DNA of 61,718 bases, taken from a virus (taxonomy: Duplodnaviria; Caudoviricetes). A program made the translations under genes and the position numbers. Where the stretch lies: IMG/VR virus record IMGVR_UViG_3300025324_000012, positions 1 to 61,718 of that record; one strand, given 5' to 3'. The stretch's first letter is position 1; each line of letters starts with the position of its first letter. This document shows positions 330 to 38,624 of this stretch, piece after piece. Under the pieces are notes generated by a model. It ran no database searches. It had not been told where the DNA came from and was given only the letters and a program-made list of their open reading frames with translations.

Positions 330-384
330 GGGAAGCCTCCTACAATGGCCTTCTTGGCGATCAGTCTTCGCTTTGTTAGTCATA

Positions 385-1627: not shown

Positions 1628-1631
1628 TATT

Positions 1632-2309: not shown

Positions 2310-2457
2310 CCAACTTGCAATTTAGATATCTGCTTTTCGCTTTTCAAAAGCAGCCAACCACTAAATTTGTTCGTGGCAAGAACAATTATTAGGCTCAAAC
2401 AGAATAGCCATGTGAATGCCCCTCTCCACGCTTGATTCCATAACCCTGAAATTGTCA

Positions 2458-2670
2458 TTAAATCTGCCTCAAAGAGAAGTTGCCGCCGTGTTTCTTCACG
2501 TAGTCCTCACCTTCACACTTGGCTGAGTCTGCCAAGAAATGCTCTTTGCTTAATAAGACTTTACGTGAAATGGGAGTGGCTTGCCAGTATACCTGCCAGA
2601 TGTTAGAAGTCAATTCTCTTCCAACTTTTCTAGTTAAGTAATGTCTGCGCCCGTATACTATAGGTTCCAT
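2458..2670 (-). CDS. Hypothetical protein
   Basis: ORF coupled within the minus-strand operon, with RBS. Confidence 0.6.
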   Translation of the reverse strand: MEPIVYGRRHYLTRKVGRELTSNIWQVYWQATPISRKVLLSKEHFLADSAKCEGEDYVKKHGGNFSLRQI

Positions 2671-2957
2671 TATTGTTCTCCCAGAACTTCTTTCAGAAAT
2701 GGGACGACTGGAAGCAATTTTTCAATTTCTACTATCAAAAGTAATTTCAGACGTCTGTCGTCAGGCCGACGAAATTTTTCTAATTCTCGTGGGGAGTAAC
2801 AAACTCCAGCCGCAGAGAACATTCCATTTGATATTAACATTACTGGCAGGTACCCTTTTGGAATATCTTCCCATTTTGTGTTTATTGGGGCTGTTATGCC
2901 TTCTCTGTGTAGAAAGACTTCTTTTTCTTCATTTGGTGGGTTTATGTAGTATCCCAT
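2670..2957 (-). CDS. Hypothetical protein
   Basis: Stop/start overlaps on both sides. Confidence 0.7.
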   Translation of the reverse strand: MGYYINPPNEEKEVFLHREGITAPINTKWEDIPKGYLPVMLISNGMFSAAGVCYSPRELEKFRRPDDRRLKLLLIVEIEKLLPVVPFLKEVLGEQ

Positions 2958-3082
2958 TATTTCTCCCTCTCAATACGTTTAGGAGTAACAGGCACGCGGA
3001 CGGGGTTCCGCGTGGGAAATGGAATTGATACCGGTTGAGGCTTCGGTACCTCTATGATTCGTAGTGGTTTGCCTACTTCCAT
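2957..3082 (-). CDS. 41-aa Pro-rich peptide MEVGKPLRIIEVPKPQP...
   Basis: Own translation; GGAG RBS and TAATG coupling at both ends. Confidence 0.6.
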   Translation of the reverse strand: MEVGKPLRIIEVPKPQPVSIPFPTRNPVRVPVTPKRIEREK

Positions 3083-3534
3083 TATTTGACTCCTTGTTGT
3101 TGATAATGCTTAACCCAATCAGAAGCAGACATTGCTTTTAGTTTCTTTTTGGGTGGGGCTTCTAGCACTACATAAGGATACTTGCTGGGCGAAATCATCC
3201 CAGCTAACATCTTTTCTGTAAGAAATACCCTAAGAACCTTGAAGTATTGGGCACGCCCACCATATTCACACTCTATAATCTTACCGTATAGAGCTAACTC
3301 AAATGCTGCCTTATCTCTGAAGTTCCCTGACCAATACTCAATCAGTTTGTCTTGGGAGGATGTGTAGTAATATCCACAACTGCATTTTAGTTCTGGTGGT
3401 TCGTGTTCTTCTGGGAGTTTATAATAGCAAGAAGCAGGCTCATCTTCTCTAACCCCACCCGTACAAGAATAGATATTCCAATCCTCGTCCAATTCCCAAA
3501 TCTTATAGCCTATTACCTGTGGTGTCTCTATCAT
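3082..3534 (-). CDS. Phage hypothetical protein with C...H...CxCG metal-binding motif
   Basis: GYKIW...C...HEPP...CSCGYY...GKIIE...RA pattern. Confidence 0.7.
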   Translation of the reverse strand: MIETPQVIGYKIWELDEDWNIYSCTGGVREDEPASCYYKLPEEHEPPELKCSCGYYYTSSQDKLIEYWSGNFRDKAAFELALYGKIIECEYGGRAQYFKVLRVFLTEKMLAGMISPSKYPYVVLEAPPKKKLKAMSASDWVKHYQQQGVK

Positions 3535-3679
3535 TTGGTTTCAAGGTTTGGCTGCGCGGCTAAGTTTAGTTGTGCGGCTAACTGTTTAGCCTGAAGCTCT
3601 GTGAATGGAACTTGAATATAGTCATAACCATCTGCCACTAGCCAGTATGATTGACCAATGAATTTAACTGCTTGATATC

Positions 3680-5251
3680 TTAAAGATGCCACTTAGCACC
3701 ACCCTTCGCTAGTAGTATTTGAGCTAGTTCTTTTATCACACTACTTTCTTCCCAATCACTCGCTACACCATCGAGTGCCGTACCAGTAATAGATCGTTTC
3801 TTCTCGACTAATTCTGCAAAAAACTCATCAATGGTCCCTACTGCGATAAAGTATGTGGCTACAGTCTTGGCCACTTTTTGGCCTAAGCGAGCCAAACGTG
3901 CCTCTGCATTTTCTTCTTTCTTAGGATTCCATTGACGTTCTAGGATTATCGACTCAGAACATACTTCCTGTAAGCCGTCTAATCCCTCACCTCCAGCAAG
4001 CGTCGAAGCGATCATGAATCGTGATCGTTCGTTCTTAATGAAGTCTTGGACTACACCATCCCTCTCGCTCATGCTTAACTGTGCTGAGAGTTCAGTACAC
4101 TTGTCGTAGCCTAGCTTAACCAGCATTTCATTAAGTCTAGCTACTAGAAGTTTGGCTACGTCAAGATGATGCAGGAAAATTACTAGCTTCCTGCTGCCAT
4201 TTGAGGAAAGAAACTCTTCACAAAATTCCACACAAGGATCAATCTTTGCCAAACCAGTGATATGACGTAGTTTGGTCATCTTTACTAAGATGGTATTATA
4301 ACGCTCAAATGATGAACCTTCATTTGAGTTCATAGCTTCAGCAAATGCCTGGAACTCCTTCACGTAAGCTGCTTCTACCTGACCACCCAAATCACAGTAT
4401 TGGTAGTTCCTACTGACTGTTGGGAAATCGTCCATTACGTCTTCAGGACTGCGCCGTATGATGAACGACGCTGTTTTTTTCTTGAATCCCTCAGGATCTC
4501 TTAACCCACCAGATTTGTAGGAATATCCATTCCAATAGTAGTCAACGTCGCGCTGAATGTATCCTGCTTCAGTTGGGAACATATCAGGGCGTATCATATT
4601 CAATATTGGAAAGTATTCGATAGTATTGTTCTCAATTGGCGCGCCACTTAGTCCCAATAAATGAGGAGCCTTGCTAACTAGTTTCCTTACGCGGCCTGTA
4701 CGTTGGGACGCGGTGTTCTTAATCTGCTGGCATTCGTCTAGAATGATCGTCTTGATTCCTAGACGTTCCACCAGATCAAAATCAAATCTTCTTAATCTGT
4801 CGTAGGACACTACGTAGGCCTCGAATCCTTCTAGGACGTCTTTACTGTCGGTAATTACGATAGGAGTTAGACCTGTCCAACGCCAAATCTGGCGCGCCCA
4901 TTGTGTCAAGATCATTGACTTAGCCACGACGATAAACGGCCTAGCTTCTGCGTGAATTTTCATTACTGCCAGGGCTTCTATCGTCTTACCAAGGCCAAAT
5001 CTGTCGGCACAGATTACACGAATGTTACCTGTCTCCGCAAACAAGGCAAAATCCACTTGGTAAGGATATAAACTTTTATTATCGGTGGACCTAATATCTT
5101 CGTATGCTTTACGCGGAGACTCTTCCACGTACTCTGTGACCATTATATGCCCACAGGTTAAGACTAACGCACGCTTACGTCCCAAACGAGACTCTGCTTG
5201 GACGTCTGCGTGTTTCTTGCAGGCTGGGCAGGTTAGTTTAATTGCTGGCAT
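3680..5251 (-). CDS. SNF2-family helicase with N-terminal Zn ribbon
   Basis: DRFGLGKT, ILDECQ, SGAP, GEGL and WNP...ARLARLGQ motifs. Confidence 0.92.
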   Translation of the reverse strand: MPAIKLTCPACKKHADVQAESRLGRKRALVLTCGHIMVTEYVEESPRKAYEDIRSTDNKSLYPYQVDFALFAETGNIRVICADRFGLGKTIEALAVMKIHAEARPFIVVAKSMILTQWARQIWRWTGLTPIVITDSKDVLEGFEAYVVSYDRLRRFDFDLVERLGIKTIILDECQQIKNTASQRTGRVRKLVSKAPHLLGLSGAPIENNTIEYFPILNMIRPDMFPTEAGYIQRDVDYYWNGYSYKSGGLRDPEGFKKKTASFIIRRSPEDVMDDFPTVSRNYQYCDLGGQVEAAYVKEFQAFAEAMNSNEGSSFERYNTILVKMTKLRHITGLAKIDPCVEFCEEFLSSNGSRKLVIFLHHLDVAKLLVARLNEMLVKLGYDKCTELSAQLSMSERDGVVQDFIKNERSRFMIASTLAGGEGLDGLQEVCSESIILERQWNPKKEENAEARLARLGQKVAKTVATYFIAVGTIDEFFAELVEKKRSITGTALDGVASDWEESSVIKELAQILLAKGGAKWHL

Positions 5252-5432
5252 TTTACTTAATTAACTCCCGAAATGGGAAGACCACGTTCTATTCTTCCTT
5301 GCTTTATCAGTTCAAAGGCTTCCTCGTGGGTAAGACATAATGCAAGCTGCAAGGCGTCAGCAGCTATGTCCATTTGATTCTTGATCTCTTTTGGGTTTGT
5401 TAGAACAAGTTCGTTCTTTGTAAGTTCTTTAA

Positions 5433-7094
5433 TCATTTTTTCTTCCTGTCTTCAAGTAACTTCTGCCAGGCAACTTCTGCTCTAGCTCTATCATAATCGT
5501 GAGCGAGCATCATGGCCTGAATACCTTTTTCATTCTTATCGGCAGCAGTAATTTCTTTCTTCTCTCTTGCTTTCTTGATCTTTTCACTACTGATAAGAGA
5601 CCCAACCTCTTTCCACTCCTGCCGCATACGTTGTTTCTCATCGTCGTCTAATGCGTCAAACCGCGCCGCACGTGCTTTCCTAGTACCTTTACTGCGCCCA
5701 ATGTATTCTGTGGCTAATGCATCCATTTCTTTGATGCGAGCCTCAATTTCTTCATCACTGAGGTTCTTACAGTAATTTTCTTCCTCAACAATGAAAAATA
5801 ATTGATTCTTGTCTAGGATGGGAGCGTTCATCATTTTCTGCTCAGAACGATGAGTCTCTAATCTCATAAACTCGTCCCTTACTTCTTGTCTAATTCGTTC
5901 GCAGGACGAACAAATGGCCTCTTCGGTTGTGAAAATCGCACAACCATGTAAAACATCTACATCCTTTGGAACGAGATTATGCGTCCAAGTCTTGTAGCAT
6001 TTAGGACATTTATGATAGCACTTTGGAGATTTTCTCAAATCCCCAACTACTGTCATAACACGTCCTATGCCACAAAATTCGCATCGGGGAACAGGACCAG
6101 CACCGTCTTCGTCTACGTAGGCGGACCATGGAATTTCTCCTATGAACTCATGGGAGCAGTGGTTACAGATTCTCTTGGCATTGCTTGCTATTGAGCTTTT
6201 TTCACTAGGTGAGCTTTCACCCACTTCCGAGCCTGTTTGTCTGTCATGTCGAATGCATTCTTTGTTGCTTCCACTACTTTCTGGTGTTTCGTCTTCTTTT
6301 TCTTGGCTTTCATTTGATTCTCCTTTGGGAGTAGAGGCATCAACTAAACCCTTAATATGGCCAAACATTCTTGGGTGTTTTTCAGACAACTCTAGTTGAG
6401 CATCGTCAAACGCAGCAATCCGCGCTGTTGAATCTAAACCTAACTCCTCATTAGACTGGGGACAGTCTGGCCCTGTGTTGGCAATAAGAGGAGTTAGGAT
6501 AGATTCTTCTGTTGGATTAACAGAACTTAAAATTGACGGTGACTCAACCTCAACTACCCTGGAGGGTATAGGGAGGGAGTCACCGTCAGTCTCCTGAGGT
6601 TGGACAGGAGACTCCTTTGCTGCTAGTGCAGCAGCAATTTCATCAAATGATTCATGGTGGAATGTTTTGCTTAATTCAGAAGTAAGGGATTCTGCTCCTT
6701 CTGGGTTGACGCCTTGGGCGCTTACGCTAGCACTATCACACAAGCGTGAATCATCTAATCCAGAAGTGGAAGATTCACTTTCTTTTTGTTCTCCTTGTGG
6801 GAGATTAACAGAATCCCTTGATTCCCCCTCTTTATGAACTTCCATATTATCTATAATAAGTGAGGAGGAATCAAGCGATTCTGATTCTACTTCAGGCGAC
6901 AAAGAATTGGGCATATTGGCGTCTATCGGCCCTACTTCAGTTTCTGACGGAATAGGGTGATAATCTGAGGTTGGTTCTTGAAGCCTGACTTCTGATTCAA
7001 GCAGAGCAATCTCATATTTGAGACGCTGATATGTAGCAGTATCACGTCTTAAGGCTGCCCTGCTCATTTCTCGTCTTTTTTCGTCGATTGTCAT
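5433..7094 (-). CDS. Hypothetical protein: acidic Ser-rich N-half, four CxxC motifs, charged helical C-terminus
   Basis: 553-aa ORF; CNHC, CEFC, CPKC, CSSC. Confidence 0.75.
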   Translation of the reverse strand: MTIDEKRREMSRAALRRDTATYQRLKYEIALLESEVRLQEPTSDYHPIPSETEVGPIDANMPNSLSPEVESESLDSSSLIIDNMEVHKEGESRDSVNLPQGEQKESESSTSGLDDSRLCDSASVSAQGVNPEGAESLTSELSKTFHHESFDEIAAALAAKESPVQPQETDGDSLPIPSRVVEVESPSILSSVNPTEESILTPLIANTGPDCPQSNEELGLDSTARIAAFDDAQLELSEKHPRMFGHIKGLVDASTPKGESNESQEKEDETPESSGSNKECIRHDRQTGSEVGESSPSEKSSIASNAKRICNHCSHEFIGEIPWSAYVDEDGAGPVPRCEFCGIGRVMTVVGDLRKSPKCYHKCPKCYKTWTHNLVPKDVDVLHGCAIFTTEEAICSSCERIRQEVRDEFMRLETHRSEQKMMNAPILDKNQLFFIVEEENYCKNLSDEEIEARIKEMDALATEYIGRSKGTRKARAARFDALDDDEKQRMRQEWKEVGSLISSEKIKKAREKKEITAADKNEKGIQAMMLAHDYDRARAEVAWQKLLEDRKKK

Positions 7095-7121
7095 TTTCCA
7101 ACCTTTCCAACCTTTCCAACC
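7095..7121. repeat. 3 x 9-bp tandem repeat (tttccaacc)
   Basis: Read directly; abuts the ATG of 5433..7094. Confidence 0.85.
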
Positions 7122-7203
7122 AGAATTCTTCTTTGTTACTATCTAGAACAAAGAGTTTACTTCTGAGCTTTCCTTACCTTCTAGGGTTGCCCGCAGGAAA
7201 CCA

Positions 7204-7953
7204 CTAAGAGATAGTGGTAAGTTGTAAGATTTTTTTCGCTGTATAGACAAACATTCTTTTATTATATGGGTCTCTTTTAATTGAGCTATCCTCATAATCT
7301 ATTCTTAATTCTACTTCTCTAAATTCAAACAAACTCTCTTGTCCTTCACCACAAAGAGTAAACACTTTTATTTTTGATTTGAGGGGTTCCTGGATCATTT
7401 GGTGGGAGAGAATCCCATTCCCATAAGCCCTAAAAAGACCTAGAACATCTTCTCCATTCTTGTCTTTCAAGAGCTTAACTAGGCAACGAGACATCATTTG
7501 TCCCCCTCTATCAGGAACAAAAATGATGGCTAGATTTGGGTCGGCACAGTGTTGTGGTATATCATCCTTAAAACAACCAGCACTAAGATTCTTACAGGTT
7601 GTAAAATGTTTACTCATACTCATTCTAGCTATGTCACTTGCTTTACAGCTAAAAATGAGTCTTCTCTCACCAAGATTCTCCAAGAATTTCGCTATTCGAT
7701 CTAAAGAGAATCTTAGGTTTTGGAGAGATTTACTCAACTTAGATCCTGAGGGGATGTACTTTGTATATCTTGTCTTGTCATCCCAGAGGGTTTGAGCAGA
7801 GTTGAGTAGTTCTTCATCATCTCCCCAATAACTAGAGATGGAGTAAGATCCTTCAAGAGAACGGAGAATTGGATTGCGATGATTAAACTGAATTCTTTTG
7901 TAAAGGCCGTGTTTGCTTAGAAGTTTCTTCACTCTAGCAAAATTGCTTCGCAA
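7204..7953 (-). CDS. Hypothetical phage protein
   Basis: 249-aa ORF with AAAGGAG RBS before TTG. Confidence 0.7.
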   Translation of the reverse strand: MRSNFARVKKLLSKHGLYKRIQFNHRNPILRSLEGSYSISSYWGDDEELLNSAQTLWDDKTRYTKYIPSGSKLSKSLQNLRFSLDRIAKFLENLGERRLIFSCKASDIARMSMSKHFTTCKNLSAGCFKDDIPQHCADPNLAIIFVPDRGGQMMSRCLVKLLKDKNGEDVLGLFRAYGNGILSHQMIQEPLKSKIKVFTLCGEGQESLFEFREVELRIDYEDSSIKRDPYNKRMFVYTAKKILQLTTIS

Positions 7954-7996
7954 TTTCTTTCTCCTTTCTTGCCAATGATTCTCTCAACGTCTGTTT

Positions 7997-8287
7997 TCAC
8001 AGGCTCTCCCTTATAAGCAGAGCGAGTTCTTTAGCTAGCGCTTCCGTGCTAAAGGTGGTTGTGCTCTGAAAAGTGATTTTAGCTCCATCAGGGAGTCTTA
8101 CGTCCATTTCAATCACGTAAATGTTGTCACCTTTGCGGTAGTAAGATGCCACCGCAGAAATGATCGTTTTCGGTTTAGTCATTTTGCCTTCTTTTGTTTG
8201 ATAACTCAATGCGCCCACTACTTTCACAGTTTCACTACTTTCTAAGGTAGTCATACTTGTGTGGTTTTCGTATGTGGGCGGATTCAA
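7997..8287 (-). CDS. Hypothetical protein (true start uncertain, possibly 8182)
   Basis: ORF track; on the coding strand of this arm. Confidence 0.5.
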   Translation of the reverse strand: MNPPTYENHTSMTTLESSETVKVVGALSYQTKEGKMTKPKTIISAVASYYRKGDNIYVIEMDVRLPDGAKITFQSTTTFSTEALAKELALLIRESL

Positions 8288-8312
8288 TTATCAAATTAGT
8301 CAGTATAAATCA

Positions 8313-8445
8313 AACCTGCAACCACTTGGAGACCTGACTCTTTTCGATGGGCAAGCTGGTGAGTCCAGTTGCAACTGGCTTCCGAGGCCTCTACCATCAT
8401 AAAGAACTACAATCCAAGAGTCAGATCTCCAAGTCGTTCCAGGTT
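8313..8445 (-). ncRNA. Candidate structured RNA A: 30-bp closing stem with branched interior
   Basis: Arms 8313-8342 and 8416-8445 with 3 non-Watson-Crick positions (one G-U, two G.G on the minus strand); intergenic. Confidence 0.55.
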
Positions 8446-8580
8446 ATCCCCCTTGTCTCAGGAGAATTTCATTCGGGGCAATTCCATCCGAAATCTGGCT
8501 TCATTCCATCCCATAGCTTGCCTGATTCCGGCCAAAGAATTGTTCTAAACTGTTCATTTTCTTCAACTAAGCGCGAACCT

Positions 8581-8634
8581 ATCCTAACATGGGGATAGGG
8601 ACCTTGTCAATATGTAAGATTTACATAGTGACAA
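8581..8634 (-). promoter_or_regulatory. Sigma70-like promoter with overlapping operator-like inverted repeat
   Basis: TTGACA-N18-TAGGAT with extended -10 TG; 14-bp inverted repeat 8604-8617/8621-8634 (1 mismatch). Confidence 0.6.
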
Positions 8635-8699
8635 TTTGTGTCAATATATGATAAATGGTAGTTTCCCATAAATCATAGGCTGACATAAAGTGTCAATTG

Positions 8700-8940
8700 T
8701 TTTTCATATAGAGATAGCTGTAAGTTATTGATAATAATATACATATAATATATATATATAATAATATATATATAAATATATATATATAAAACACTTAACT
8801 CATCCGAACATTAAGGGTTAGTACTACTAACTCGGTACTAGAGGGTAAACAGGGAAAAGTTACCATGTACATTTTACCATTTCCTAGCCTGCCCATACCC
8901 TTACTCCCCTACCTTTCCCCTAACCTATTGATTCTGTTAT
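8700..8940. other. AT-dinucleotide tract flanked by IHF-consensus sites; candidate replication origin
   Basis: 8731-8790 is almost pure A/T; TAAnnnnTTGATW at 8721-8733 and 8921-8933. Confidence 0.5.
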
Positions 8941-9024
8941 ACTTAAGCATCATAAGTACGTAGGAAACAAGCCAGAACAGTATCAGAATAGGGTCAGATT
9001 CAAGTAGGAAACGGAACGAATTAA

Positions 9025-9186
9025 TTAACCCTGGGGAAATATCTTGACCGTCAAAATAGGATTCTGGAAAGTGTCTAGTTCAGCGACAATGACGATTCGT
9101 CTTCCCTCAATTTCCAGGACAAGACAAGTGTCGTCTTGACTCACTACCTCAACGTCATTGTCCAGGAAAATGGATTCGAGTGTCAT
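9025..9186 (-). CDS. 53-aa hypothetical protein MTLESIFLDND...
   Basis: Own translation; weak RBS. Confidence 0.45.
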   Translation of the reverse strand: MTLESIFLDNDVEVVSQDDTCLVLEIEGRRIVIVAELDTFQNPILTVKIFPQG

Positions 9187-9198
9187 TTTAATTCACAG

Positions 9199-9226
9199 AA
9201 AAGAGGGTTTAACCTAATCCACCCTC
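9199..9226 (-). terminator. Intrinsic terminator after 9244..9663
   Basis: GAGGGT...ACCCTC hairpin followed by TTTT on the minus strand. Confidence 0.5.
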
Positions 9227-9243
9227 AAAGGTGCTTTCCGTCG

Positions 9244-9663
9244 TTAGACGGCCAGTCCGCGATCAGTACGACCCTTGACAACGATCTCCCGTGCTTCGGA
9301 CTCGGAGATTCCTAAAGCCACAGCAAGTGCTCGCGAGGCTTTGTCAATCTGCTTGCCAGGACCCTCTACTTGTGCCTCAAGTGTGCCGGCAAGTGCTGAC
9401 CGTATCCCCAGGTCGTGGGAAGAATTGACATGCTGACAGAGAACCTCCTCTGTTTCATACTTCTTTGCTTCCGTTGACCAGTTTGCTGCTACTGCCGTGA
9501 AAATGGCAATAGCGTGGTCGAGGGTTTCGGCGTTATTCCGCTTGAAAGGCATAATGTAATCTACGCCTCCGACGGTACGCTTGAGTTCCTTCTCAACCAC
9601 TGGTGCGTCAGTTGTAACAGTCTTGTCTACCGTAGGTAGACGAGTTGCTTGTGTTTCAGCCAT
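9244..9663 (-). CDS. Hypothetical early protein
   Basis: Strong AAAGGAGG RBS. Confidence 0.8.
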   Translation of the reverse strand: MAETQATRLPTVDKTVTTDAPVVEKELKRTVGGVDYIMPFKRNNAETLDHAIAIFTAVAANWSTEAKKYETEEVLCQHVNSSHDLGIRSALAGTLEAQVEGPGKQIDKASRALAVALGISESEAREIVVKGRTDRGLAV

Positions 9664-9722
9664 TTATTCCTCCTTTCATCTCATATAAGTAAATTGACGT
9701 TTTGAGATACGTCAAAGTGTTC

Positions 9723-9841
9723 AAAAAGCGAACGATTCTGATCTTTGTTAGGGTGTAAGATCTATTTTACCAATTTACACCATAACCACAGTTTGGTATA
9801 TTCTGTGCTAACAAAGATCAGAATCCTTCGCTTGCTTCCAT
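9723..9841 (-). ncRNA. Candidate structured RNA B: three-way junction with complementary loops
   Basis: 26-bp stem 9726-9751/9808-9833; two inner hairpins; UACCAA and UUGGUA loops; promoter just upstream and U-tract downstream. Confidence 0.7.
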
Positions 9842-9847
9842 TCCTTA

Positions 9848-9876
9848 AGCATACCTTAAGGCTAAGCAAAAGTCAA
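9848..9876 (-). promoter_or_regulatory. Sigma70-like promoter
   Basis: TTGACT-N17-TATGCT. Confidence 0.7.
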
Positions 9877-9893
9877 GGTATTTCTTTGGGAAA

Positions 9894-9936
9894 GGGGATG
9901 GCATAAAATGGTATCATGCCACTTTTTGTCATCCCC
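9894..9936 (-). terminator. Hairpin or terminator after 9942..10160
   Basis: GGGGATGGCA...TGTCATCCCC stem with TTT downstream on the minus strand. Confidence 0.6.
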
Positions 9937-9941
9937 GCGCC

Positions 9942-10160
9942 TTAAAGATTCCGCCATTGAATGCCCGAAATTGTCTTTCTTGCCTCTTTTGGGTTCGACG
10001 GCGCAAGGTTAATCGACGCCGCTATCATTTGTGCACCGTAGTGAAGCTCTAACTTTTGAGCTTCCCTTGCAATTAGTGCAGCAATCTGGGCCATTTCGCC
10101 TATTGGTGACTTGAAGTCGGCGTCGTGAACTGCCCAGTAGCAGTCTCTCATTCGTGGCAT
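9942..10160 (-). CDS. Hypothetical early protein
   Basis: GAGG RBS; TGATG coupling. Confidence 0.7.
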   Translation of the reverse strand: MPRMRDCYWAVHDADFKSPIGEMAQIAALIAREAQKLELHYGAQMIAASINLAPSNPKEARKTISGIQWRNL

Positions 10161-10336
10161 CAGATTTTCCTCGTCGGTTTTAGGATCAGCTTGTGGCTGT
10201 CCATGGTGGGTTTAGATACAGAGCACAAGTCAATGAAATGCCCTTGCTCGTTGATTGTGATTTGTGTCCACGTATACTTGTCATAAGTCGGCAAGTAAAT
10301 GCGAGTCCAGCCCCTGTTGTCTCGGTCGTATCTCAT
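10160..10336 (-). CDS. 58-aa hypothetical protein MRYDRDNRGW...
   Basis: Own translation; AGGAGGTGAGG RBS; coupled to the next ORF. Confidence 0.65.
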   Translation of the reverse strand: MRYDRDNRGWTRIYLPTYDKYTWTQITINEQGHFIDLCSVSKPTMDSHKLILKPTRKI

Positions 10337-10460
10337 GTGATTTTCCTCACCTCCTTTCCTGACGTTAGAAACATCATTCCACGCTCAACTACGATTTTGT
10401 ATGGTTACCCTTTCTTGAAGTGTAGCATGTTGAGCGTGGGATGATATTCCCACGAAAGTA

Positions 10461-10558
10461 TGCTCAAAACTAGACTCAAGGTTCTTCTCTCATTCTGCGC
10501 CTACGTGGGTAGGCGACTTACAATATGAGCCAGTTTCGCTTGAGTCTAGTTTTCAGCA
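10461..10558 (-). ncRNA. Candidate structured RNA C: 20-bp closing stem with nested rod
   Basis: Arms 10461-10480 and 10539-10558 (one G.G mismatch); inner CTCAT/ATGAG and CGCCTAC/GTAGGCG stems. Confidence 0.5.
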
Positions 10559-10559
10559 A

Positions 10560-10739
10560 CTAGCGGATTATCAAATTCCCGATGAACAAGCCAACGTCTT
10601 TCACGTCGTTGACATACGCTGCGCGCACAATAACGCCGCGCTTATCCTCAGTAACACGCCGACCAACCATTGCGTCTTTGTCAGGCTTTGGTTTGGGTGT
10701 GTAGAGTGAGTTGATGATTCTCTCAACGTCTGTTTTCAT
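10560..10739 (-). CDS. 59-aa hypothetical protein MKTDVERIIN...
   Basis: Own translation; AAGGAGG RBS. Confidence 0.7.
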   Translation of the reverse strand: MKTDVERIINSLYTPKPKPDKDAMVGRRVTEDKRGVIVRAAYVNDVKDVGLFIGNLIIR

Positions 10740-10786
10740 TTAGATTATCCCTCCTTCGCGCATCCCATTTGAATGCGCGATATTGC

Positions 10787-11146
10787 TTACTGCTTCGCCT
10801 GAGCCTTTGTTGGCTCAGCGGTTAGACCAGTGTAGTCAAACGCTGATTCCGTTTGGGAACCGATGCCCAGGGCGAAACGTACTTTCGCCTGTGTAGCTTC
10901 CGACAGTCCCTCCTTCGCCATGCGCAGGAGTACAATGCCCTCCAAGCGCGCGGTTTCGGATTTGACCTTGCTCTCGATGGCTGCCTGCACTAGGCCGGCG
11001 ACATCATTTCTGGACCGTGCCGCTTGCAGCAGCTTGCCTAAACGATTCACCGTGGACATGCCGAAGATCACTTCGATTGCTTTGAGCAGAATCTGGTCAC
11101 GTTCGTTACGTTCGTTCATGGTAATCCTCCAGGTTTGATAGTACAT
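10787..11146 (-). CDS. Hypothetical early protein (probable start MNERNE at 11119)
   Basis: GGAGG RBS before the internal ATG. Confidence 0.75.
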   Translation of the reverse strand: MYYQTWRITMNERNERDQILLKAIEVIFGMSTVNRLGKLLQAARSRNDVAGLVQAAIESKVKSETARLEGIVLLRMAKEGLSEATQAKVRFALGIGSQTESAFDYTGLTAEPTKAQAKQ

Positions 11147-11219
11147 CCGTTTAATGGGATGCCCGAAGGAAAGATAATCCGTTAGTATGCCCTTTGCGCA
11201 GGGTATACCTGCGCTAATT

Positions 11220-11597
11220 TTACTTCACCGTCCAGGCTCCGCAACCGCTGATCTTGGCAACGCGACGTTTCTGTACCTGTGCGGGAATGACCTGTTCCGT
11301 TTCTTCCCATTCGATCTTACACGTTTCAGTCGGGGCGTTCTGTGTTCTGAATTGCAGTTTAACGCCGTCGACCTCGCAATGCATTGAGAATGTACCTTGG
11401 TCCTCGTCGAAGTGTTTCTCGTACTCCCCCACTTTAGGGAGATTTGTGAAGTCCTCGACGTAGACGACAGCCTCGCAAGCGTACTCGTTAGTGTATCCTC
11501 TTGCGTCGGTTAGATTGAGCTTTTCGAGAACAGCCTCAATCCGGTTAAGGTTGCCAATGCACTTGGCAAAATACTTGATATTGTTGCTTATGTTCAT
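11220..11597 (-). CDS. Hypothetical early protein (start revised to MNISNN)
   Basis: GGAGGG RBS before ATG 11597; the longer track ORF extends into regulatory DNA. Confidence 0.7.
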   Translation of the reverse strand: MNISNNIKYFAKCIGNLNRIEAVLEKLNLTDARGYTNEYACEAVVYVEDFTNLPKVGEYEKHFDEDQGTFSMHCEVDGVKLQFRTQNAPTETCKIEWEETEQVIPAQVQKRRVAKISGCGAWTVK

Positions 11598-11899
11598 ATA
11601 CCCTCCGTAAAGGGCATACTTTGATCGCCCGCTCGTCGCGACGGCGATATGCTTTCTGCGTAGGATTTTAACCTGTGTGTTCGTCGGCATTGCGCCGCTC
11701 GGTTCGGGTTGTACCATTACAGTAGCAAGCCAATGGCCATGTTTTCGACTACCATTAGTTGTAGTACTAACTGTTCTATTACCGAACAGATTGTGTCTAC
11801 TAAGTAGTAACAGCGCCATATAACCCACATTGTCCGGCCCATGTTTGTATCTTATTGATTCTGTTAGAGCTAGAGTGGGTCAAATTACACAGTACCATG

Positions 11900-12070
11900 C
11901 GCCATTCCACGCACATACCATTACTAGTGGTACTAGTACTGGTAGTACCACTAGTGGTTGTAGTTATCGTGGAGTAATAGTACTAGTACATTGTCTGAGG
12001 GGTACTAGTACCCCCCTGGGGTAGGGCGCGGGTTCCACGCAATTCTATAAAAAATTTTACTTTTCTAGTT
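11900..12070. repeat. Palindrome cluster (TACTAGTA/ACTAGT) plus GC block and A/T run at the strand switch; candidate packaging or terminus region
   Basis: 13-bp perfect inverted repeat 11923-11935/11943-11955; 16-bp palindrome 11999-12014; lies upstream of the packaging operon. Confidence 0.55.
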
Positions 12071-12210
12071 TGGGTAGTGGAAAAAATAATCCACCGCCAG
12101 TAACATAGTTACCCCTTTAATTGTTCGGTTTTCTTGTTCGGGGTGACAAATAAGGGCCAAACTATTGAAAACAACTGACTTATATTGTCATTGACTTTGA
12201 ATGTAACTCT

Positions 12211-12564
12211 ATGATACTCTTTAAGGCAATGGGAGCATTCCCTCTAGGCAATCCACAGAACCTTGAGCTATTGAAGCGTGCAGCAGGGCTGTTGATTCTG
12301 CGTGGCAAGCCTTTTACCACGGTTGGTGATTTTGAAGGTTTGGCAGTTTTAGCTCCTGCTGTTCCCGTCGTATCATCAAACGTAAAGGTGGTTGGACCTT
12401 ACTACGTTGGGAATAAAATGGATATCACGTTTAGGGGTGGGAGACTCTATCGTTACTCTGATATTAGTATGGCTGAGTATGAAGCATTGTTAGTATCGCC
12501 TTCTAAGGGACAATTTGTCAACGGTAGAATCGCTTACTCTTATGCTTATGAGAGGCTGAGTTAA
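12211..12564 (+). CDS. KTSC-domain protein (probable start 12229)
   Basis: VSSNV...F.GG..YRY.....Y..L...SKG.F.N signature. Confidence 0.85.
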   Translation: MILFKAMGAFPLGNPQNLELLKRAAGLLILRGKPFTTVGDFEGLAVLAPAVPVVSSNVKVVGPYYVGNKMDITFRGGRLYRYSDISMAEYEALLVSPSKGQFVNGRIAYSYAYERLS

Positions 12565-12770
12565 TGTGGCTAACCTTGGAAGAGGCAATCCGTCGCTTGA
12601 ACAGTCCCAAAAACGTGGCTTCTATTTCGCCTGTATCAAATGTTCCGCCATACACTTTTATGCCCCTGGGGAGTTCTGGGAAGAGCTCGAATTCAAGTGC
12701 CCGTGTGGAGTTAGAGTCAAAACAGGAGTCAACGTTAAAAGATACGACGGCAGCATTCGCCGGGGAGTAA
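12564..12770 (+). CDS. Hypothetical protein
   Basis: TAATG coupling with GAGG RBS. Confidence 0.5.
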   Translation: MWLTLEEAIRRLNSPKNVASISPVSNVPPYTFMPLGSSGKSSNSSARVELESKQESTLKDTTAAFAGE

Positions 12771-12779
12771 GGTGGGCTA

Positions 12780-13217
12780 ATGTCGGCAAATAACATGGAA
12801 ATTGGTAATGTGCCTTTGGGACTGAATAAAAGTTACTACCATTGCTGGGATTATGATGAAAAAGAAAAACTTATAATTCCTTATACGGAAGATACCCCTC
12901 TTATTTATAGGGGTTGGAATGTTTTTTGGACTGGTTGGAAGTCTACTCATTTAAGCACGCGTCAAGCTGGTCAATGGTTAGCTTGGCCACCGGTGGAATT
13001 ATATAAGAGTGGATTTAGGAAGCAGTATGTTTCCTGTGTTCCTGGAGAATGCAGAGAATATAGTAAAGGGGAAGAATTTGATATTATCCCCGAAGGGGAG
13101 CAAATTCCCATTGCTGGAGAAACTTCCCAAAAGGACGCAGGGGTAATGGTGGAAAAGGGTTTAGAACGGCTTAAGAAATTGCTTGATACTGTTCCTGTTT
13201 GTGGGGAAATAAAATGA
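12780..13217 (+). CDS. Hypothetical protein, paralog of 15249..15656
   Basis: Shared Y[RK]G....W[ST]G.........G.WLA block. Confidence 0.75.
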   Translation: MSANNMEIGNVPLGLNKSYYHCWDYDEKEKLIIPYTEDTPLIYRGWNVFWTGWKSTHLSTRQAGQWLAWPPVELYKSGFRKQYVSCVPGECREYSKGEEFDIIPEGEQIPIAGETSQKDAGVMVEKGLERLKKLLDTVPVCGEIK

Positions 13218-13780
13218 GCACAGCAATTCAAGAATATGACTTCATGGAGAAGATACGCCGAGAAGGTTTTGGCGACAGATTTTTCGATTTTATTTCCAAC
13301 AGGTCGGAAAAGCGCTTTAAGCTTCTTCTAACTGCGCTGAAGGATAAGCAGTATAAGTCAGTTCCTCTTCCTAGTTTATGTAAAGCAAGTGGTATTGACA
13401 TGACCGAGTTAGAGCGGTCATGGATTGACTTTAATAGGCAGCGTGGACTAGTCCGTATGGCCTCTCAATTACCTGACGTAATGGACGACGTTGCCGTCGA
13501 CGCAAGATCCGTCGTCGTTAAATGCAGAAATTGTGACGGTTTGGGACGGCTAGAGAATCAGCCTGAATTTCCTGAATGCCCAATTTGTGACGGAAGTGGA
13601 AAAGTACGTCGAATTGGCGATAAACATTCGAGGGAATTGCTGTTTGATACTATGAAATTGACCAGCAAGGAACCGCTGGTAAATATTAATAACAATTTCT
13701 CGTTAGAGTCAATCGTTGGTGATGCAAGTAAAATCCTTCGCAGCAATAGCGAAGTGATTGACATACAACCTGAGCCCTAA
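13214..13780 (+). CDS. terS: Putative terminase small subunit with DnaJ-type Zn finger
   Basis: Upstream of terL; CRNCDGLG and CPICDGSG; VNINNNF...VIDIQ tail. Confidence 0.5.
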   Translation: MSTAIQEYDFMEKIRREGFGDRFFDFISNRSEKRFKLLLTALKDKQYKSVPLPSLCKASGIDMTELERSWIDFNRQRGLVRMASQLPDVMDDVAVDARSVVVKCRNCDGLGRLENQPEFPECPICDGSGKVRRIGDKHSRELLFDTMKLTSKEPLVNINNNFSLESIVGDASKILRSNSEVIDIQPEP

Positions 13781-13814
13781 CGACGCATTTTTGTGCTGGT
13801 TTTGGTAGGAAAAA

Positions 13815-14042
13815 ATGACCTTCAAGTTCTTTCGTCTAAGAGGAATTGAACGTGAACTCGCTAAATTGAATGCTAATTTAGAGCTAATTATGATTCACTC
13901 TCTAGGTATAACACCACACTCGACGAAGAAGGTCACTTCGTTGGACGTTGAGGAAACGACAGTAGAATACTTAGACGAAGGTGACGATTTCGAGCGAGAA
14001 ATTAAAGAAAAGTTAGGTCGGGTCAAAGAAACGGTCGAATAA
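13815..14042 (+). CDS. Hypothetical protein
   Basis: AGGA RBS; operonic. Confidence 0.65.
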   Translation: MTFKFFRLRGIERELAKLNANLELIMIHSLGITPHSTKKVTSLDVEETTVEYLDEGDDFEREIKEKLGRVKETVE

Positions 14043-14043
14043 G

Positions 14044-15249
14044 ATGTATTCTGATCTTGTTTCATACAAACAAATTGAGAAGTTAGAGGCAGCCTCGGGC
14101 ATAAAGCTTGCCCGAACTGACTTTAAGCAAGTAGCTGAGTGGAAATCTCGTCTTGGTGAAGTTAAGCGTGACCTCACGACCGAAGAACAGTTCTTCGTTC
14201 GCAACGAGACCTTAGTTTCGATGCTCGATTTTAACTATTGGGCACCTCGTTATTGCTACATTGACTATGATGGCTCTGAGGGTGGTGGAATTGGACCCTT
14301 GAAGCTATGGGATAGTCAAATAGTAATGATGAATATTGTTGCCCGCGCCGAGGAGCGAGCTTTTGAGGCATTTAATCGTCAGGAACCAACCGATGGAGTG
14401 CGAGTAATAGACCATAAAGCGCGGCAATTGGGTGGGACTGCCATAGCCCGCGCAATGACGACTCATCGTCTTACCCTCCACAAAGACATACGTGCTATGT
14501 CAGCATCCGTTGATGAAGATAAGATCAAAGAACTTTACGATCGTGATAAGATCATCTACGACAACCTCCCTTGGTGGCTAAAGCCTTCCCTCGATAAGAA
14601 AGAGGGTGGATATGATGTTAAAGCACAGCATATTCACTTTGAGGGGCTTCATTCCCGAATCCTTTACCAGCACTCGCAACAGAAAACAGGAATGGGTGTA
14701 GGTCGTCATTGGGACATTGCCCACCTCACCGAATGCAGCGCCTGGAAAGCTCCTGAAATGGATATTGAGTTAAATTTCTTTCCAGGACTTTCTCAATACT
14801 GGATGACGTTGTGTATCCTAGAATCCACTGCGCTGGGCAGGGGAAATTGGTGGCATGACTTCACTGAACGCGTCCGTAGGGGTAAGATTCCTGGTTGGTC
14901 TTACTGTTTTGTCCCTTGGTATGCAGAGGGGAAGAAGTATCGCAGACAGCCTCCTAAAGATTGGGTTCCAGATCCTCTATCTCTAGAACATGCTAAGCGT
15001 GTTTATGCCACGTCAATGGAGTTCGTTGGCAAGCAGGTTAGTCTCCCCTGGGAGCAACTTTATTGGTATGAGACTACTCGTAGGCAGTATCTTGAAGGAA
15101 ATAAGCTAAACCATTTCCTTACTTCTTATGCGTCAACTCCTGAGGAATCATTCCAGCATACTACTCAAAGTGGATTCAGTACTCAAATACTTGAATGGGC
15201 TGATCTTCATACTAAGATGGGGCAGCCTTTTGAATTGGAGGTTGCTTAA
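14044..15249 (+). CDS. terL: Terminase large subunit, ATPase part
   Basis: KARQLGGT Walker A, HLTE Walker B, ESTA coupling motif, F.PWY and YASTPEESF. Confidence 0.9.
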   Translation: MYSDLVSYKQIEKLEAASGIKLARTDFKQVAEWKSRLGEVKRDLTTEEQFFVRNETLVSMLDFNYWAPRYCYIDYDGSEGGGIGPLKLWDSQIVMMNIVARAEERAFEAFNRQEPTDGVRVIDHKARQLGGTAIARAMTTHRLTLHKDIRAMSASVDEDKIKELYDRDKIIYDNLPWWLKPSLDKKEGGYDVKAQHIHFEGLHSRILYQHSQQKTGMGVGRHWDIAHLTECSAWKAPEMDIELNFFPGLSQYWMTLCILESTALGRGNWWHDFTERVRRGKIPGWSYCFVPWYAEGKKYRRQPPKDWVPDPLSLEHAKRVYATSMEFVGKQVSLPWEQLYWYETTRRQYLEGNKLNHFLTSYASTPEESFQHTTQSGFSTQILEWADLHTKMGQPFELEVA

Positions 15250-15656
15250 TGTTACGACGTGGATTTTTGTCAGCTTTGGTTGCACCTGCTGTTTTGGCAG
15301 CAAAATCAATACCAGGTAAAGAAGATTCCGACGAATTTTTGTATAAAGGCCTCAAGATCACCTGGTCCGGCTTTTTACCTTCACAGTATAGCGTAGAATT
15401 GGTTGGTTATTGGTTAGCGCTGCGTCCTGATGGATATGGTCTGTATGCTACTACAGGTGGTTTTGGTCAGTTTTATACTCCTTACATGACTATGGATTTA
15501 CGTGTAAGCCATAATTTTCCTAGAGTGACAGCGCAGTCAAGCAATTTAGATAAGCAACAATGTAAAATGCGAGCACGTAATAATATTATTAAAATGTGCA
15601 ATAACCCAGAGGATTTTGAAGGCTCAGACAAGTGGTCTGCTGAGGAAATTGAGTAG
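15249..15656 (+). CDS. Twin-arginine-signal protein inserted between the terL halves
   Basis: MLRRGFLSALVAPAVLA N-terminus; GGAGG RBS; coupled at both ends. Confidence 0.8.
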   Translation: MLRRGFLSALVAPAVLAAKSIPGKEDSDEFLYKGLKITWSGFLPSQYSVELVGYWLALRPDGYGLYATTGGFGQFYTPYMTMDLRVSHNFPRVTAQSSNLDKQQCKMRARNNIIKMCNNPEDFEGSDKWSAEEIE

Positions 15657-16480
15657 TGAGCAACGTCCAACCATACACGATTGGTTCTCAAGTTTTAGTA
15701 CCTAATTTGAGCCCACAGAATTACGACCAAGATCCGAGAGGATATATCTGGTTGTGGGAGAAACCAATCCATACAGCAACATACGTGATGGCCATTGACC
15801 CGTCAGTTGGACGTACAGGTTGGTGCCGTGCTACACGAACAGAAGACGATTATCGTACAGATAATGGTGCTATTTTCATCATGCGCTGTGGTGTAAATGG
15901 GTTACCTGACACACAAGTAGCTGAATATGCTGGTCCTGTTGATGCAGAAGAAATTGGCACTATTGCCAACGCATTAGGGCGTCTATACGCGGGCAAAGAG
16001 GAAATGGCAATCTGCATCATTGAAATGTATCCCGGTCCTGGCCTTTTAACATATAGGCGAATGATGGATCTAGGATATACCAACCACTTTGTATGGAAAT
16101 ACCTCGACAACGCAGGTGGAGCATTAAAATTCGGTTTCTGGCCAGGGAGGGAATCTAATAAGTACCTCTGGATTAGAGCCTCTCGTCACTTTCATAATAA
16201 GGGACTTGTAGTTAAATCCCCCTGGCTTGTTGAGGAAATGCGTAATTGTGAAGTAGATCCAGTTAAGATGTGGGGCCGCGCCGTATATGGCACGCATGAT
16301 GACCGGGTGCGTGCCATGATGATGGCGTTGTGGGCAGCACATGACTGGTCAATGCAGGTAGATACAGCTACGCCCGTAGTTACAGAGGGTAAAGTAGTAG
16401 ATTGGCAACGCTCAGACATTACTGCTGAACAACTAGCAGATGCCTGGGAGGAAAGATTCTTAGAACTTCAAGAGGCTTAA
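15656..16480 (+). CDS. terL: Terminase large subunit, nuclease part
   Basis: YVMAIDPSVG, D.GA, IE..PG.G and HDDRVRA RNase H-like acidic motifs. Confidence 0.88.
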   Translation: MSNVQPYTIGSQVLVPNLSPQNYDQDPRGYIWLWEKPIHTATYVMAIDPSVGRTGWCRATRTEDDYRTDNGAIFIMRCGVNGLPDTQVAEYAGPVDAEEIGTIANALGRLYAGKEEMAICIIEMYPGPGLLTYRRMMDLGYTNHFVWKYLDNAGGALKFGFWPGRESNKYLWIRASRHFHNKGLVVKSPWLVEEMRNCEVDPVKMWGRAVYGTHDDRVRAMMMALWAAHDWSMQVDTATPVVTEGKVVDWQRSDITAEQLADAWEERFLELQEA

Positions 16481-16917
16481 TGACTTCACCAATTTCAGTC
16501 CCTAACAGTACTAGTGCAAGCCCAATTACACCAAGTTTAACAAGGGTAATAGTTCTCCTCCCGAACGATTTGATTGAGGCTTATGTCAAACAGTCTGTCA
16601 AGCAAGGATCTTCACTGGAGGAAGTCCTAACTGATCGTTTGCGATCATGTGTAACACATGAACCTGGGCGGAATTTGTTCTTCAATCCAAAACAAAGAGA
16701 AGCGGTAGAGATTATCCTCAATTCAGGCCCACTTACCGCAGAAAGAGCCATTTCTGCACTACGTCGTGCCCTATCTGTAGTAGTTGCTGGTGAGATTGTG
16801 GAATTATCTCCTGGCCTGATAGATAGACTGAGAAGTAGACATTTTGATGGTAAGTTCTCTGATTTTGTTAAAGCTCAGGTAATTAAGGGCTTGGAAGAAT
16901 TTACAGGATTAAGCTAA
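16480..16917 (+). CDS. Hypothetical protein
   Basis: Coupled ORF with GAGG RBS. Confidence 0.7.
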   Translation: MTSPISVPNSTSASPITPSLTRVIVLLPNDLIEAYVKQSVKQGSSLEEVLTDRLRSCVTHEPGRNLFFNPKQREAVEIILNSGPLTAERAISALRRALSVVVAGEIVELSPGLIDRLRSRHFDGKFSDFVKAQVIKGLEEFTGLS

Positions 16918-17294
16918 TGCCAGTGCATAATGTTGTATGCGTGGAGTGTGGTGAGGTAGTAGAAGATCTCGCTTGTAAAGAGTGGCCAGATGAGATTTTG
17001 CACCTAGATCACAATCATGTTGGGAAATTTGAGATCCTTTGGAGCACCGGAAGCAAGCAGTTAGCTTCCGTTCATGCAAGTGAACGAGCAGTAGTGTGGT
17101 ATCATCCCAAGCACGGGTATAGATACCCAGGGCGCAACGACGTCCCTATGCCAGAAGGTTATAAGCGGGACGGCTTTGTGAGGCAAGAGCTGCCTCACCT
17201 CTCGGACTTAAAGCAATTAGAAAAGGAAGCTGGAGTCTTATCTGAAACAGTCCACTTTGATAAGGGGACAGGTCGGGACTTCATGGGGAATTAA
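16917..17294 (+). CDS. FmdB-like Zn-ribbon protein
   Basis: MPVHNVVCVECGEVVE N-terminus. Confidence 0.55.
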   Translation: MPVHNVVCVECGEVVEDLACKEWPDEILHLDHNHVGKFEILWSTGSKQLASVHASERAVVWYHPKHGYRYPGRNDVPMPEGYKRDGFVRQELPHLSDLKQLEKEAGVLSETVHFDKGTGRDFMGN

Positions 17295-17299
17295 GGTTA

Positions 17300-18613: not shown

Positions 18614-18711
18614 AAAATTTGGTAGATATTGCTAAGATCAAAATCATAAACATAACAGGACTAAAATCTGTTAAAGAAATAGAATTGCTTCAGAAAACTA
18701 AGAAGAAATGA
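18610..18711 (+). CDS. 33-aa basic peptide MKNLVDIAKI...
   Basis: ATGA overlaps at both ends; GAGG RBS. Confidence 0.45.
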   Translation: MKNLVDIAKIKIINITGLKSVKEIELLQKTKKK

Positions 18712-37130: not shown

Positions 37131-38263
37131 TGGGACAATATAGACCATCCTTCAATGATCTAACTAGCCTCGACAAGAAAAAAGTAGACGTCGAGCAGCT
37201 AGAGCGCGTCTTTAGAATAGTATTCGACCGTCTATATGAAACTCCCACAAGCATTGAGCAGGCAATCTTAGAAGCTGAGAAGAAACTTCCTTCTCTAATT
37301 AGAGAAAATGCTGAAGTTATCCAACGAAGTCTTCAGGCTGATGGTAATGCGCCACTTAATCTAACTTCGCTTCCAGGTATTCCTGCGCAGGTAAGTCAGA
37401 TTATACAGGATACTCATGCTAATCGAATAGCTCTTTACCCAGCAGCTAACTACCCCAATACAGTTTTCTGGGAAACTGATAGATTAGTTCTGTATGTATC
37501 TGAAGCTGGAACGTGGAAGTACGTTTCTGGAGTTAACGTTAATACTTTTTCTAATCGTCCAGCTGATCTAGGGACAGGTGATGTAGGATTTCAGTTCTAT
37601 GCATCAGATTTTACTGTTGGTTGGAGATGGAGTGGCACCGCATTTGAGTATAGATATGGAATTTATGAAAGAACTCAAGCTCAACTAGCTGCGTTGGCTG
37701 CGTTGCTGGCCGCAAGTGATGTTGGATTTCTCGTGGATGTTACAGATTATGAGCACATACTAAAGTGGACTGGTACAGCTTGGAGTTTTCAGGCTGGTGA
37801 TGGTTCTGGTCATGTCGTGATGGGTAAGCCAGATGGTTCTGCACCTAATGGTGGTGTGTGGGGATTATGTGATGGGACGGCTTATACTGTACTTAATGGT
37901 GTTGGAACTACTAGTAACTTAACTACACAGAATCTAACCGGTGAGGTGTTCCTAAAGGGTGCAACTGCTGTTGCTGGACAGCAGGCAGCAGTACGAGCAA
38001 CTTGGGAAGTAGCTGCAATTACAGACAACGCCAGTGCAGGTACTCCAGCAGGATCTATTGGAAACAACGATTCAAGCGTGGCAGTGCAATCTGGAGCGGG
38101 CACAACAGTAGCGGCTGACCCACACTCCCACTCATTCACAGGTAGTGCAATGGGAAATCATCAGCATGCATTAAGTGATGCCAATGCACAACTAAAGGTT
38201 CCAAGTGAAGCAAATGGTGGTTTACCGCTACGGATAAGTACAGTTTGGTATATAAGGAGATAG
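37130..38263 (+). CDS. Tail fibre/collar-like protein
   Basis: W.LCDG collar motif; HSHS and HQHA metal-binding repeats. Confidence 0.7.
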   Translation: MGQYRPSFNDLTSLDKKKVDVEQLERVFRIVFDRLYETPTSIEQAILEAEKKLPSLIRENAEVIQRSLQADGNAPLNLTSLPGIPAQVSQIIQDTHANRIALYPAANYPNTVFWETDRLVLYVSEAGTWKYVSGVNVNTFSNRPADLGTGDVGFQFYASDFTVGWRWSGTAFEYRYGIYERTQAQLAALAALLAASDVGFLVDVTDYEHILKWTGTAWSFQAGDGSGHVVMGKPDGSAPNGGVWGLCDGTAYTVLNGVGTTSNLTTQNLTGEVFLKGATAVAGQQAAVRATWEVAAITDNASAGTPAGSIGNNDSSVAVQSGAGTTVAADPHSHSFTGSAMGNHQHALSDANAQLKVPSEANGGLPLRISTVWYIRR

Positions 38264-38267
38264 TTTA

Positions 38268-38624
38268 ATGGAAGTTAAGGTTCTTGGTCCTAACGAATAT
38301 GATGCTCTCAAAGAAACTCCTTCTGGGGAGGTTTTTACTCCAGATAATTGCATTGCTCTTGTAGCAATTGAGGGTGAAGAAGTAGTAGGCCGAATGACTT
38401 TAATGAACCTCATACATCTTGAGGGTTCGTGGATTAAGGACGGCCATAGGAATAGCCAGACATTACGCGCCCTTGAGCAAGCAATCTATGCTGAGGCTAA
38501 GCGTTTAGGGCTAACTTATATTCACTCATATGCTCCTACACCTGCGCACGAAACAATGCTGCAGCGTTCTGGTTGGAGTCGTATGCCATTAAGTGTTTGG
38601 GTTAAGGATCTACAGGAGGTCTAA
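38268..38624 (+). CDS. GNAT-fold protein of the podoviral tail/ejection module
   Basis: Acetyltransferase-like pattern; position before the ejection genes. Confidence 0.6.
   Translation: MEVKVLGPNEYDALKETPSGEVFTPDNCIALVAIEGEEVVGRMTLMNLIHLEGSWIKDGHRNSQTLRALEQAIYAEAKRLGLTYIHSYAPTPAHETMLQRSGWSRMPLSVWVKDLQEV

Follow-up and report, generated by a model that had tools for sequence, protein, structure and literature searches.

The RNase III sites of phages T7, T3 and lambda carry the names R0.3, R0.5, R1, R1.1 and R1.3, and in T7 each is a simple hairpin whose terminal loop is small and whose internal loop is asymmetric. Among RNAs built on a three-way junction, phi29 pRNA is a small phage RNA with complementary loops, and the purine riboswitch has two hairpin loops that pair with each other and a ligand pocket formed by junction strands of several nucleotides. 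In the RNA of lambda, T7 and T3, several sites are RNase III targets (PMC5371410). A second source gives about two helical turns of double-stranded RNA as the criterion for an RNase III site, allows coaxially stacked helices to count toward that length, and notes that cleavage is limited by bulges or internal loops, which leave 3' hairpins with a protective effect (PMC1540722).

The locus surveyed here lies in a 61,718-bp record, the whole stretch of DNA that was analysed (hereafter the window), which represents a complete virus with a direct terminal repeat (1-99 identical to 61620-61718). A leftward gene block runs from around 12,200 down to 1, and element B is located inside it (Table 1). 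None of the neighbouring small proteins around B has a family in PHROGs or Pfam. Five homologues of the 139-aa protein downstream of B (P0002-P0006, 63-76% identity) were found in other metagenomes; no relative of its gene was found in IMG/VR, JGI metagenomes or GTDB genomes with either the single protein or the alignment as query, and INPHARED (GenBank phages) gave no match by DNA and no relative of the 139-aa gene by protein. An exact 18-mer of the B arm had no match in IMG/VR, and the short ORFs overlapping B were absent from the protein collection. No RNase III gene was found in the phage genome and no match to the T7-type RNA polymerase family, the latter a weak negative given that the control genomes were equally silent; host enzymes are therefore the candidates for any role of this kind. 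Six sequencing runs were listed, none of RNA. Three of them (X3, X5 and X6), two from groundwater (one study) and one further run from soil, each contained two short contigs within window positions 7900-11200 with zero differences from the window, and a fourth (X4) gave no contig; the same phage therefore occurs at low depth outside its likely source samples.

Table 1. Positions in the window of element B and its parts, of flanking and sister features, and of the candidate target
Feature	Position	Strand	Description
Element B		minus	gap between co-oriented genes 9942..10160 and 9244..9663
B, 5' arm of 26-bp stem	9808..9833	minus	mismatch G at 9826
B, 3' arm of 26-bp stem	9726..9751	minus	mismatch G at 9733
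B, hairpin 1	9787..9807	minus	5-bp stem 9807-9803/9791-9787, 11-nt loop
B, linker between hairpins	9786-9782	minus	5 nt
B, hairpin 2	9752..9781	minus	7-bp stem 9781-9775/9758-9752, 16-nt loop
B, run of five T	9725..9729	minus	first two pair with AA at stem base
Promoter-like TTGACT-N17-TATGCT	9848..9876	minus	9/12; ends 14 nt before stem
G+C-rich hairpin	9894..9936	minus	just past stop of gene 9942..10160; three U after
Small hairpin, 7 bp	9694..9715	minus	between B and ribosome site of 9244..9663; flagged terminator-like
Gene 9244..9663	9244..9663	minus	139 aa, without family; AAGGAGG at 9675-9669
Element A	8313..8445	minus	30-bp stem, two G.G and one U.G, 73-nt interior
Element C	10461..10558	minus	20-bp stem, one G.G, 58-nt interior
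Element D	10370..10448	minus	20-bp stem, one U.G and one C.A, 39-nt interior
Candidate target	38239..38259	plus	38240-38253 complement and G.U at 38239, then AAGGAG 38254-38259
Gene 38268..38624	38268..38624	plus	late block, 118 aa, orphan, good ribosome site

The initial annotation had described B as a 26-bp stem with one G.G that encloses two hairpins, joined by 0/5/0-nt linkers, and ends in a run of five T, and every one of these parts was recovered at the positions in Table 1. The single G.G is at pair 8 of the 26 counted from the base, and the two junction strands of 0 nt are both those adjacent to the stem. Folding of the whole element reproduced this architecture with a minimum free energy (MFE) of -48.3 kcal/mol. 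The exact structure drawn in the annotation came to -47.3 kcal/mol against an MFE of -47.8 kcal/mol, a cost of 0.5 kcal/mol; in the MFE fold hairpin 2 gains three extra pairs, drawing on part of its loop.

The whole element folds far better than chance (z -7.8, with 0 of 200 shuffles folding as well), and inverted repeats with at least 18 matched pairs around a 20-200-nt interior numbered four in the window and zero in each of 30 shuffles. The 56-nt interior alone reached -10.3 kcal/mol (z -0.99), a value equalled or bettered by 36 of 200 shuffles. Since the interior is no better than shuffled sequence, the three-way junction that had been proposed is a plausible drawing but is unsupported as a structure. 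The stem accounts for all of the significance of B and the interior for none. B folds to nearly the same degree on the plus strand (-46.9 kcal/mol, z -9.7), so that folding energy alone cannot name the strand on which the element acts.

The perfect complementarity claimed between the two hairpin loops is also present, UACCAA (9798-9793) in loop 1 facing UUGGUA (9773-9768) in loop 2. Six Watson-Crick loop-loop pairs were reached by 569 of 20000 pairs of shuffled loops and by 281 of 20000 pairs of random ones, giving the match a nominal probability of 1.4-2.8% in what was a post hoc test. Forcing these loops to pair gave -41.5 against -47.8 kcal/mol, and at a cost of 6.3 kcal/mol there is no sign of a switch between near-isoenergetic folds.

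Four long-stem elements, A to D, B among them, occupy gaps between co-oriented minus-strand early genes at 8313-10558. Folding gave z values from -5.8 to -7.2 for A, C and D. All four sequences are unrelated, arms included, and a comparison of B with its own genome found nothing beyond B and its arms. For A and D the interior shows no structure above that of shuffles; for C it shows mildly more. Four true mismatches occur in the stems of A, B and C; all four are G.G on the sense strand, and they are placed 5-11 pairs above the base of the repeat. Element D ends 34 nt ahead of the start codon of gene 10160..10336. The sole other long repeat in the window lies in a coding region.

Several repeats besides these four elements were noted in this part of the genome. 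A 22-bp inverted repeat at 6809-6883 (minus strand), inside ORF 5433..7094, carries a G.G and a G.U when read on the sense strand and shares with B the 8-mers GGATTCTG and CAGAATCG, each containing the mismatched G; it may derive from the ES/DS codon repeats of the acidic protein encoded by this ORF. In a 430-nt gap, at about 8580-8800 (minus strand), there are two TGACA-N5-TGTCA palindromes, three copies of TTGACA and a long block of (TA)n type, which could be an origin or operator region. A 25-nt direct repeat (7975-7999 and 10714-10738) covers the starts of two small frames with the N-terminus MKTDVERII; the 249-aa ORF 7204..7953 may start further upstream, or a short paralogue may be present.

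Elements of the same kind recur in distant relatives, which were anchored on the SNF2 helicase encoded 4.5 kb downstream of B (33-47% identity). Closer homologues of the helicase are the proteins P0008 and P0009, at 87% and 77% identity. Eighty IMG/VR loci, taken with 7 kb on each side of the helicase, left 78 after de-duplication (926 kb), and these contained 14 long repeats of the B type compared with 0, 0 and 0 in three shuffles. Twelve of the 14 are upstream of the helicase. Each has a long stem with one or two mismatches and an interior of 40-190 nt that is often branched, and in six of 13 (judged by eye, with L039 left out) a Shine-Dalgarno sequence and a start codon follow within 60 nt. 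Element B has all the features by which the class is defined: a near-perfect stem, 20 bp or longer and carrying G.G or U.U as a mismatch, an interior that varies, and placement on the sense strand within a gap of the early region. It differs from most of its class in having a promoter-like site 14 nt upstream and a T5 run at its 3' base, the latter in B only, and in being separated by 62 nt from the next start codon, where others directly adjoin the ribosome site. It is likewise the only one of 18 elements with loop-loop complementarity of more than 3 nt, the 17 others lacking it.

Comparison of related pairs of loci shows how the stems change. Between L054 and L050 the lower arms are identical, as are 24 arm bases, and the interior has been replaced; one pair change is compensatory and two are one-sided changes to U.G. 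Between L063 and L060, 12 of 46 predicted pairs have changed on both sides with pairing kept, although these double changes stem partly from a matched one-pair deletion, and an A.C mismatch is retained at the same stem position in both. The upper stem is conserved between L070 and L075. Tandem long-stem elements with similar arm motifs were seen in L063 (3301-3460 and 3467-3624), with an L060 counterpart at 1507-1664. A stretch of about 60 nt, 84% identical and containing a small hairpin, is shared by three phages that are otherwise distant (L004 8198-8259, L050 4446-4506 and L054 4483-4539), falling inside the long stem of L004 but immediately downstream of that of L050 and of L054; the window lacks it.

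The mismatches tolerated in these stems bear on the question of strand. Of the single mismatches in RNA, G.G and U.U destabilise a helix least. When the sense-strand mismatches of window elements A, B and C were pooled with those of the relatives (duplicates L006 and L017 dropped), there were 10 G.G, no C.C, four U.U and no A.A. The total of 14 G.G and U.U against 0 C.C and A.A points to selection on the sense-strand RNA. The pooled sense-strand counts of G.U (10) and A.C (7) are uninformative on strand. We read the stem as the selected part of the cassette, and it most likely acts at the RNA level on the gene-sense strand.

We favour reading B as a stem in the early mRNA that serves RNase III-type processing or stabilises the message, and we would give this reading about an even chance of being correct; cleavage, the enzyme and co-transcription are what we infer. 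The fact that B is one of several unrelated long stems between early genes makes a processing or stability signal likelier than a stand-alone RNA gene. Its 26-bp stem amounts to around two helical turns, with five further pairs coaxially stacked without a linker, and this reading is drawn from the RNase III properties given in the two sources cited above (PMC1540722; PMC5371410). A cassette would consist of a near-perfect stem of 20-30 bp, with one or two purine-purine or U.U mismatches, around a variable interior. The early message would be cut between genes 9942..10160 and 9244..9663 by a nuclease specific for double strands, namely RNase III of the host or an equivalent, whose presence there is assumed. 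Instead or as well, protective hairpin ends may be left on the pieces of mRNA. Cutting of both strands of the stem would free the interior, of about 60-100 nt, as a small RNA.

The initial annotation had instead treated B as a lone RNA gene, a view that the three sister elements and the recurrence of the kind in distant relatives speak against. In its developed form, B would be a stand-alone small RNA gene of about 115 nt, transcribed from the promoter-like site at 9876-9848, ending in the stem and U run, and acting in trans on gene 38268..38624; hairpin 1 would pair upstream of the ribosome site of that gene and repress or otherwise modulate its translation, with loop 2 masking the seed. We consider this unlikely, although it is the strongest of the alternatives. 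The promoter sequence is present as had been described, and both its location 14 nt before the stem and the T5 run at the 3' base would suit such a gene; its strength as a promoter did not hold up, however. Sites scoring 9 of 12 numbered 41 in window positions 1-20000 against 33.9 +/- 6.0 in shuffles, so the site is at noise level, and a promoter-like site within 80 nt upstream was found for only three of 16 class elements, compared with 6.5% of random windows.

What does lend the stand-alone gene some weight is a match to the late block. Hairpin 1, through its loop and 3' strand (9801-9788), can form 14 contiguous Watson-Crick pairs with plus-strand 38240-38253, which, extended by the G.U at 38239, abut AAGGAG ahead of the ATG of gene 38268..38624. 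The target gene has no homologue but itself in a word-indexed search of 5.8 billion proteins, and no family in PHROGs or Pfam. Of 61663 56-nt windows, 218 (0.35%) are complementary in the RNA sense, over 14 nt or more, to a start region (-35 to +15 of 91 crude gene calls), and the 14-mer of hairpin 1 has exactly two copies and none with 1-2 mismatches. Loop 2 of B has 6 nt complementary to 38221-38226. The loop-loop match, nominally at 1.4-2.8%, is a further point for the stand-alone gene. Against this, a repeated 14-mer is common when its location is ignored (4.3% of 56-nt windows and 18 of 300 random 70-nt windows). The duplex energy of the B interior with the 38268 region ranks second of 1747 windows, and another window scores equally. 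Some ten tests were made post hoc, and the 0.35% is therefore not decisive. No stretch of 11 nt or more in the interiors of A, C and D is complementary to any sense RNA, and the interiors of cassettes from five relatives, identified in a looser screen (at least 17 pairs), showed only background repeats of 10-13 nt across the whole genomes; complementarity of cargo to target was consequently rejected as a feature of the class. The 14-mer was also considered as a multi-copy promoter motif and rejected, there being two exact copies and 10 sites with up to three mismatches against 6.8 expected.

The same complementarity enters a broader proposal, in which the long stems would be a general phage device for producing small RNAs: a purine-purine mismatch in the clamp would mark a cassette, a double-strand nuclease would excise it from the early message and the cargo would act in trans. 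The two-hairpin RNA excised from B would have a seed of 14-15 nt against the start region of 38268..38624, and the complementary loop 2 would mask this seed until a target or partner opened it. A pure processing signal leaves the 14-nt late-gene complementarity of the B interior, alone among those of the window, unexplained. We regard the broader proposal as doubtful, less probable than the stand-alone gene.

Equally doubtful is a role in cis, in which B would be the leader of gene 9244..9663, either an attenuator formed by the stem and U run or a 5' structure affecting stability or translation. The element is 62 nt upstream of the start codon, and its stem base GCGAA/UUCGC is followed by U5, two of which are able to pair with AA; the T5 run is a possible weak terminator tail. 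Downstream, the small hairpin at 9694-9715 precedes the ribosome site and has a loop, AUCUCA, complementary to UGAGAU at 9683-9678 just before that site. The terminator scanner accepts loops of 3-8 nt only, which places B beyond its listing; it did not flag the hairpin at 9894..9936, and no flagged terminator is located upstream of B. On the other side, the rest of the class is without a U run, the 0/5/0-nt junction has no obvious ligand pocket, the interior is not structured above chance, and Rfam gave no riboswitch or leader match at E up to 10.

Within the 3-kb region, the promoter-like site that scores best is inside B on the plus strand (9774-9802; TTTACA-N17-TATATT with an upstream TG, 10/12), and transcription begun there would produce RNA that is antisense to both gene 9942..10160 and the 5' arm. 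Such a site, the foldable plus strand, the AT-repeat block and palindromes nearby (about 8600-8800) and the identical arms around a replaced interior in L054/L050, as expected of recombination boundaries, would all fit a DNA-level, cruciform-capable inverted repeat serving as an antisense promoter, a recombination boundary or in replication; this is the least probable of the readings, since the 14-to-0 mismatch asymmetry and the one-sided changes to sense-strand U.G are not predicted by it, promoter-like sites inside class elements are not enriched (7 against 5.6 expected), B is single-copy in its own genome, and the unrelated arms of A, B, C and D leave no common protein site visible.

A number of described elements were also considered for B and set aside. 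They comprise a hammerhead (unmatched in Rfam, and its catalytic core would find no room in a 0/5/0 junction), a Y RNA-like molecule (no Rfam match), a tRNA or tmRNA (none found), a retron (no reverse transcriptase in the phage genome), an integron attC site (its boundary motifs were not seen on reading) and a miniature transposable element (B being single-copy, its arm 18-mer absent from IMG/VR and the arms of A-D unrelated).

If B is indeed a processing or stabilising stem, the early operon in an uncultured group of soil phages would be punctuated by clamp stems of a common plan, the theme of T7-type RNase III processing would be extended to a new architecture, and a simple sequence signature would become available for such sites in metagenomic phages. 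The strand-asymmetric rule of 14 to 0 in mismatches is a concrete and testable feature. Pairing of the B interior with the start of a late gene is in addition a cheap and specific hypothesis of early-to-late control.

With regard to known families, Rfam gave no match at gathering scores for the whole window and none at E up to 10 for 8200-10700, which indicates that B is undescribed at the Rfam level, as the initial annotation had supposed of its proposed RNA. No report of long-stem cassettes in phage early regions was among the literature matches listed. The annotation had also drawn attention to features recalling phi29 pRNA and purine riboswitches, and this likeness was not borne out, the junction being at chance, the loop pairing absent from the 17 other elements and the promoter noise. 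Unlike phi29 pRNA, B has no Rfam match and a chance-level junction, and it sits among early rather than packaging genes. Unlike the purine riboswitch, it has a junction of only 0/5/0 nt, no Rfam match and no alternative fold close in energy.

The closer parallels are with substrates of RNase III. Like the RNase III signals of T7, T3 and lambda, the elements are found in gaps or leaders of co-oriented early genes, span around two helix turns and contain a non-Watson-Crick spot, and the expected outcome there is separate, stabilised messages (PMC5371410; PMC1540722). They are unlike the T7 sites in their near-perfect stems of 20-30 bp with a single G.G and in their interiors of 39-73 nt, reaching about 190 nt in relatives, and cleavage is in their case predicted. 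The stems from which 16S and 23S rRNA are processed offer a second likeness, as they too bring distant flanks together in a long stem and are cut by RNase III to release the structured RNA that they enclose (PMC6582327). Unlike those stems, B encloses a non-ribosomal cargo of 56 nt inside a phage protein-coding operon. Overall, B is a solid structure with a fairly conventional putative function: a long, near-perfect clamp around a variable interior, which would probably act in the manner of T7-type RNase III sites and rRNA stems.
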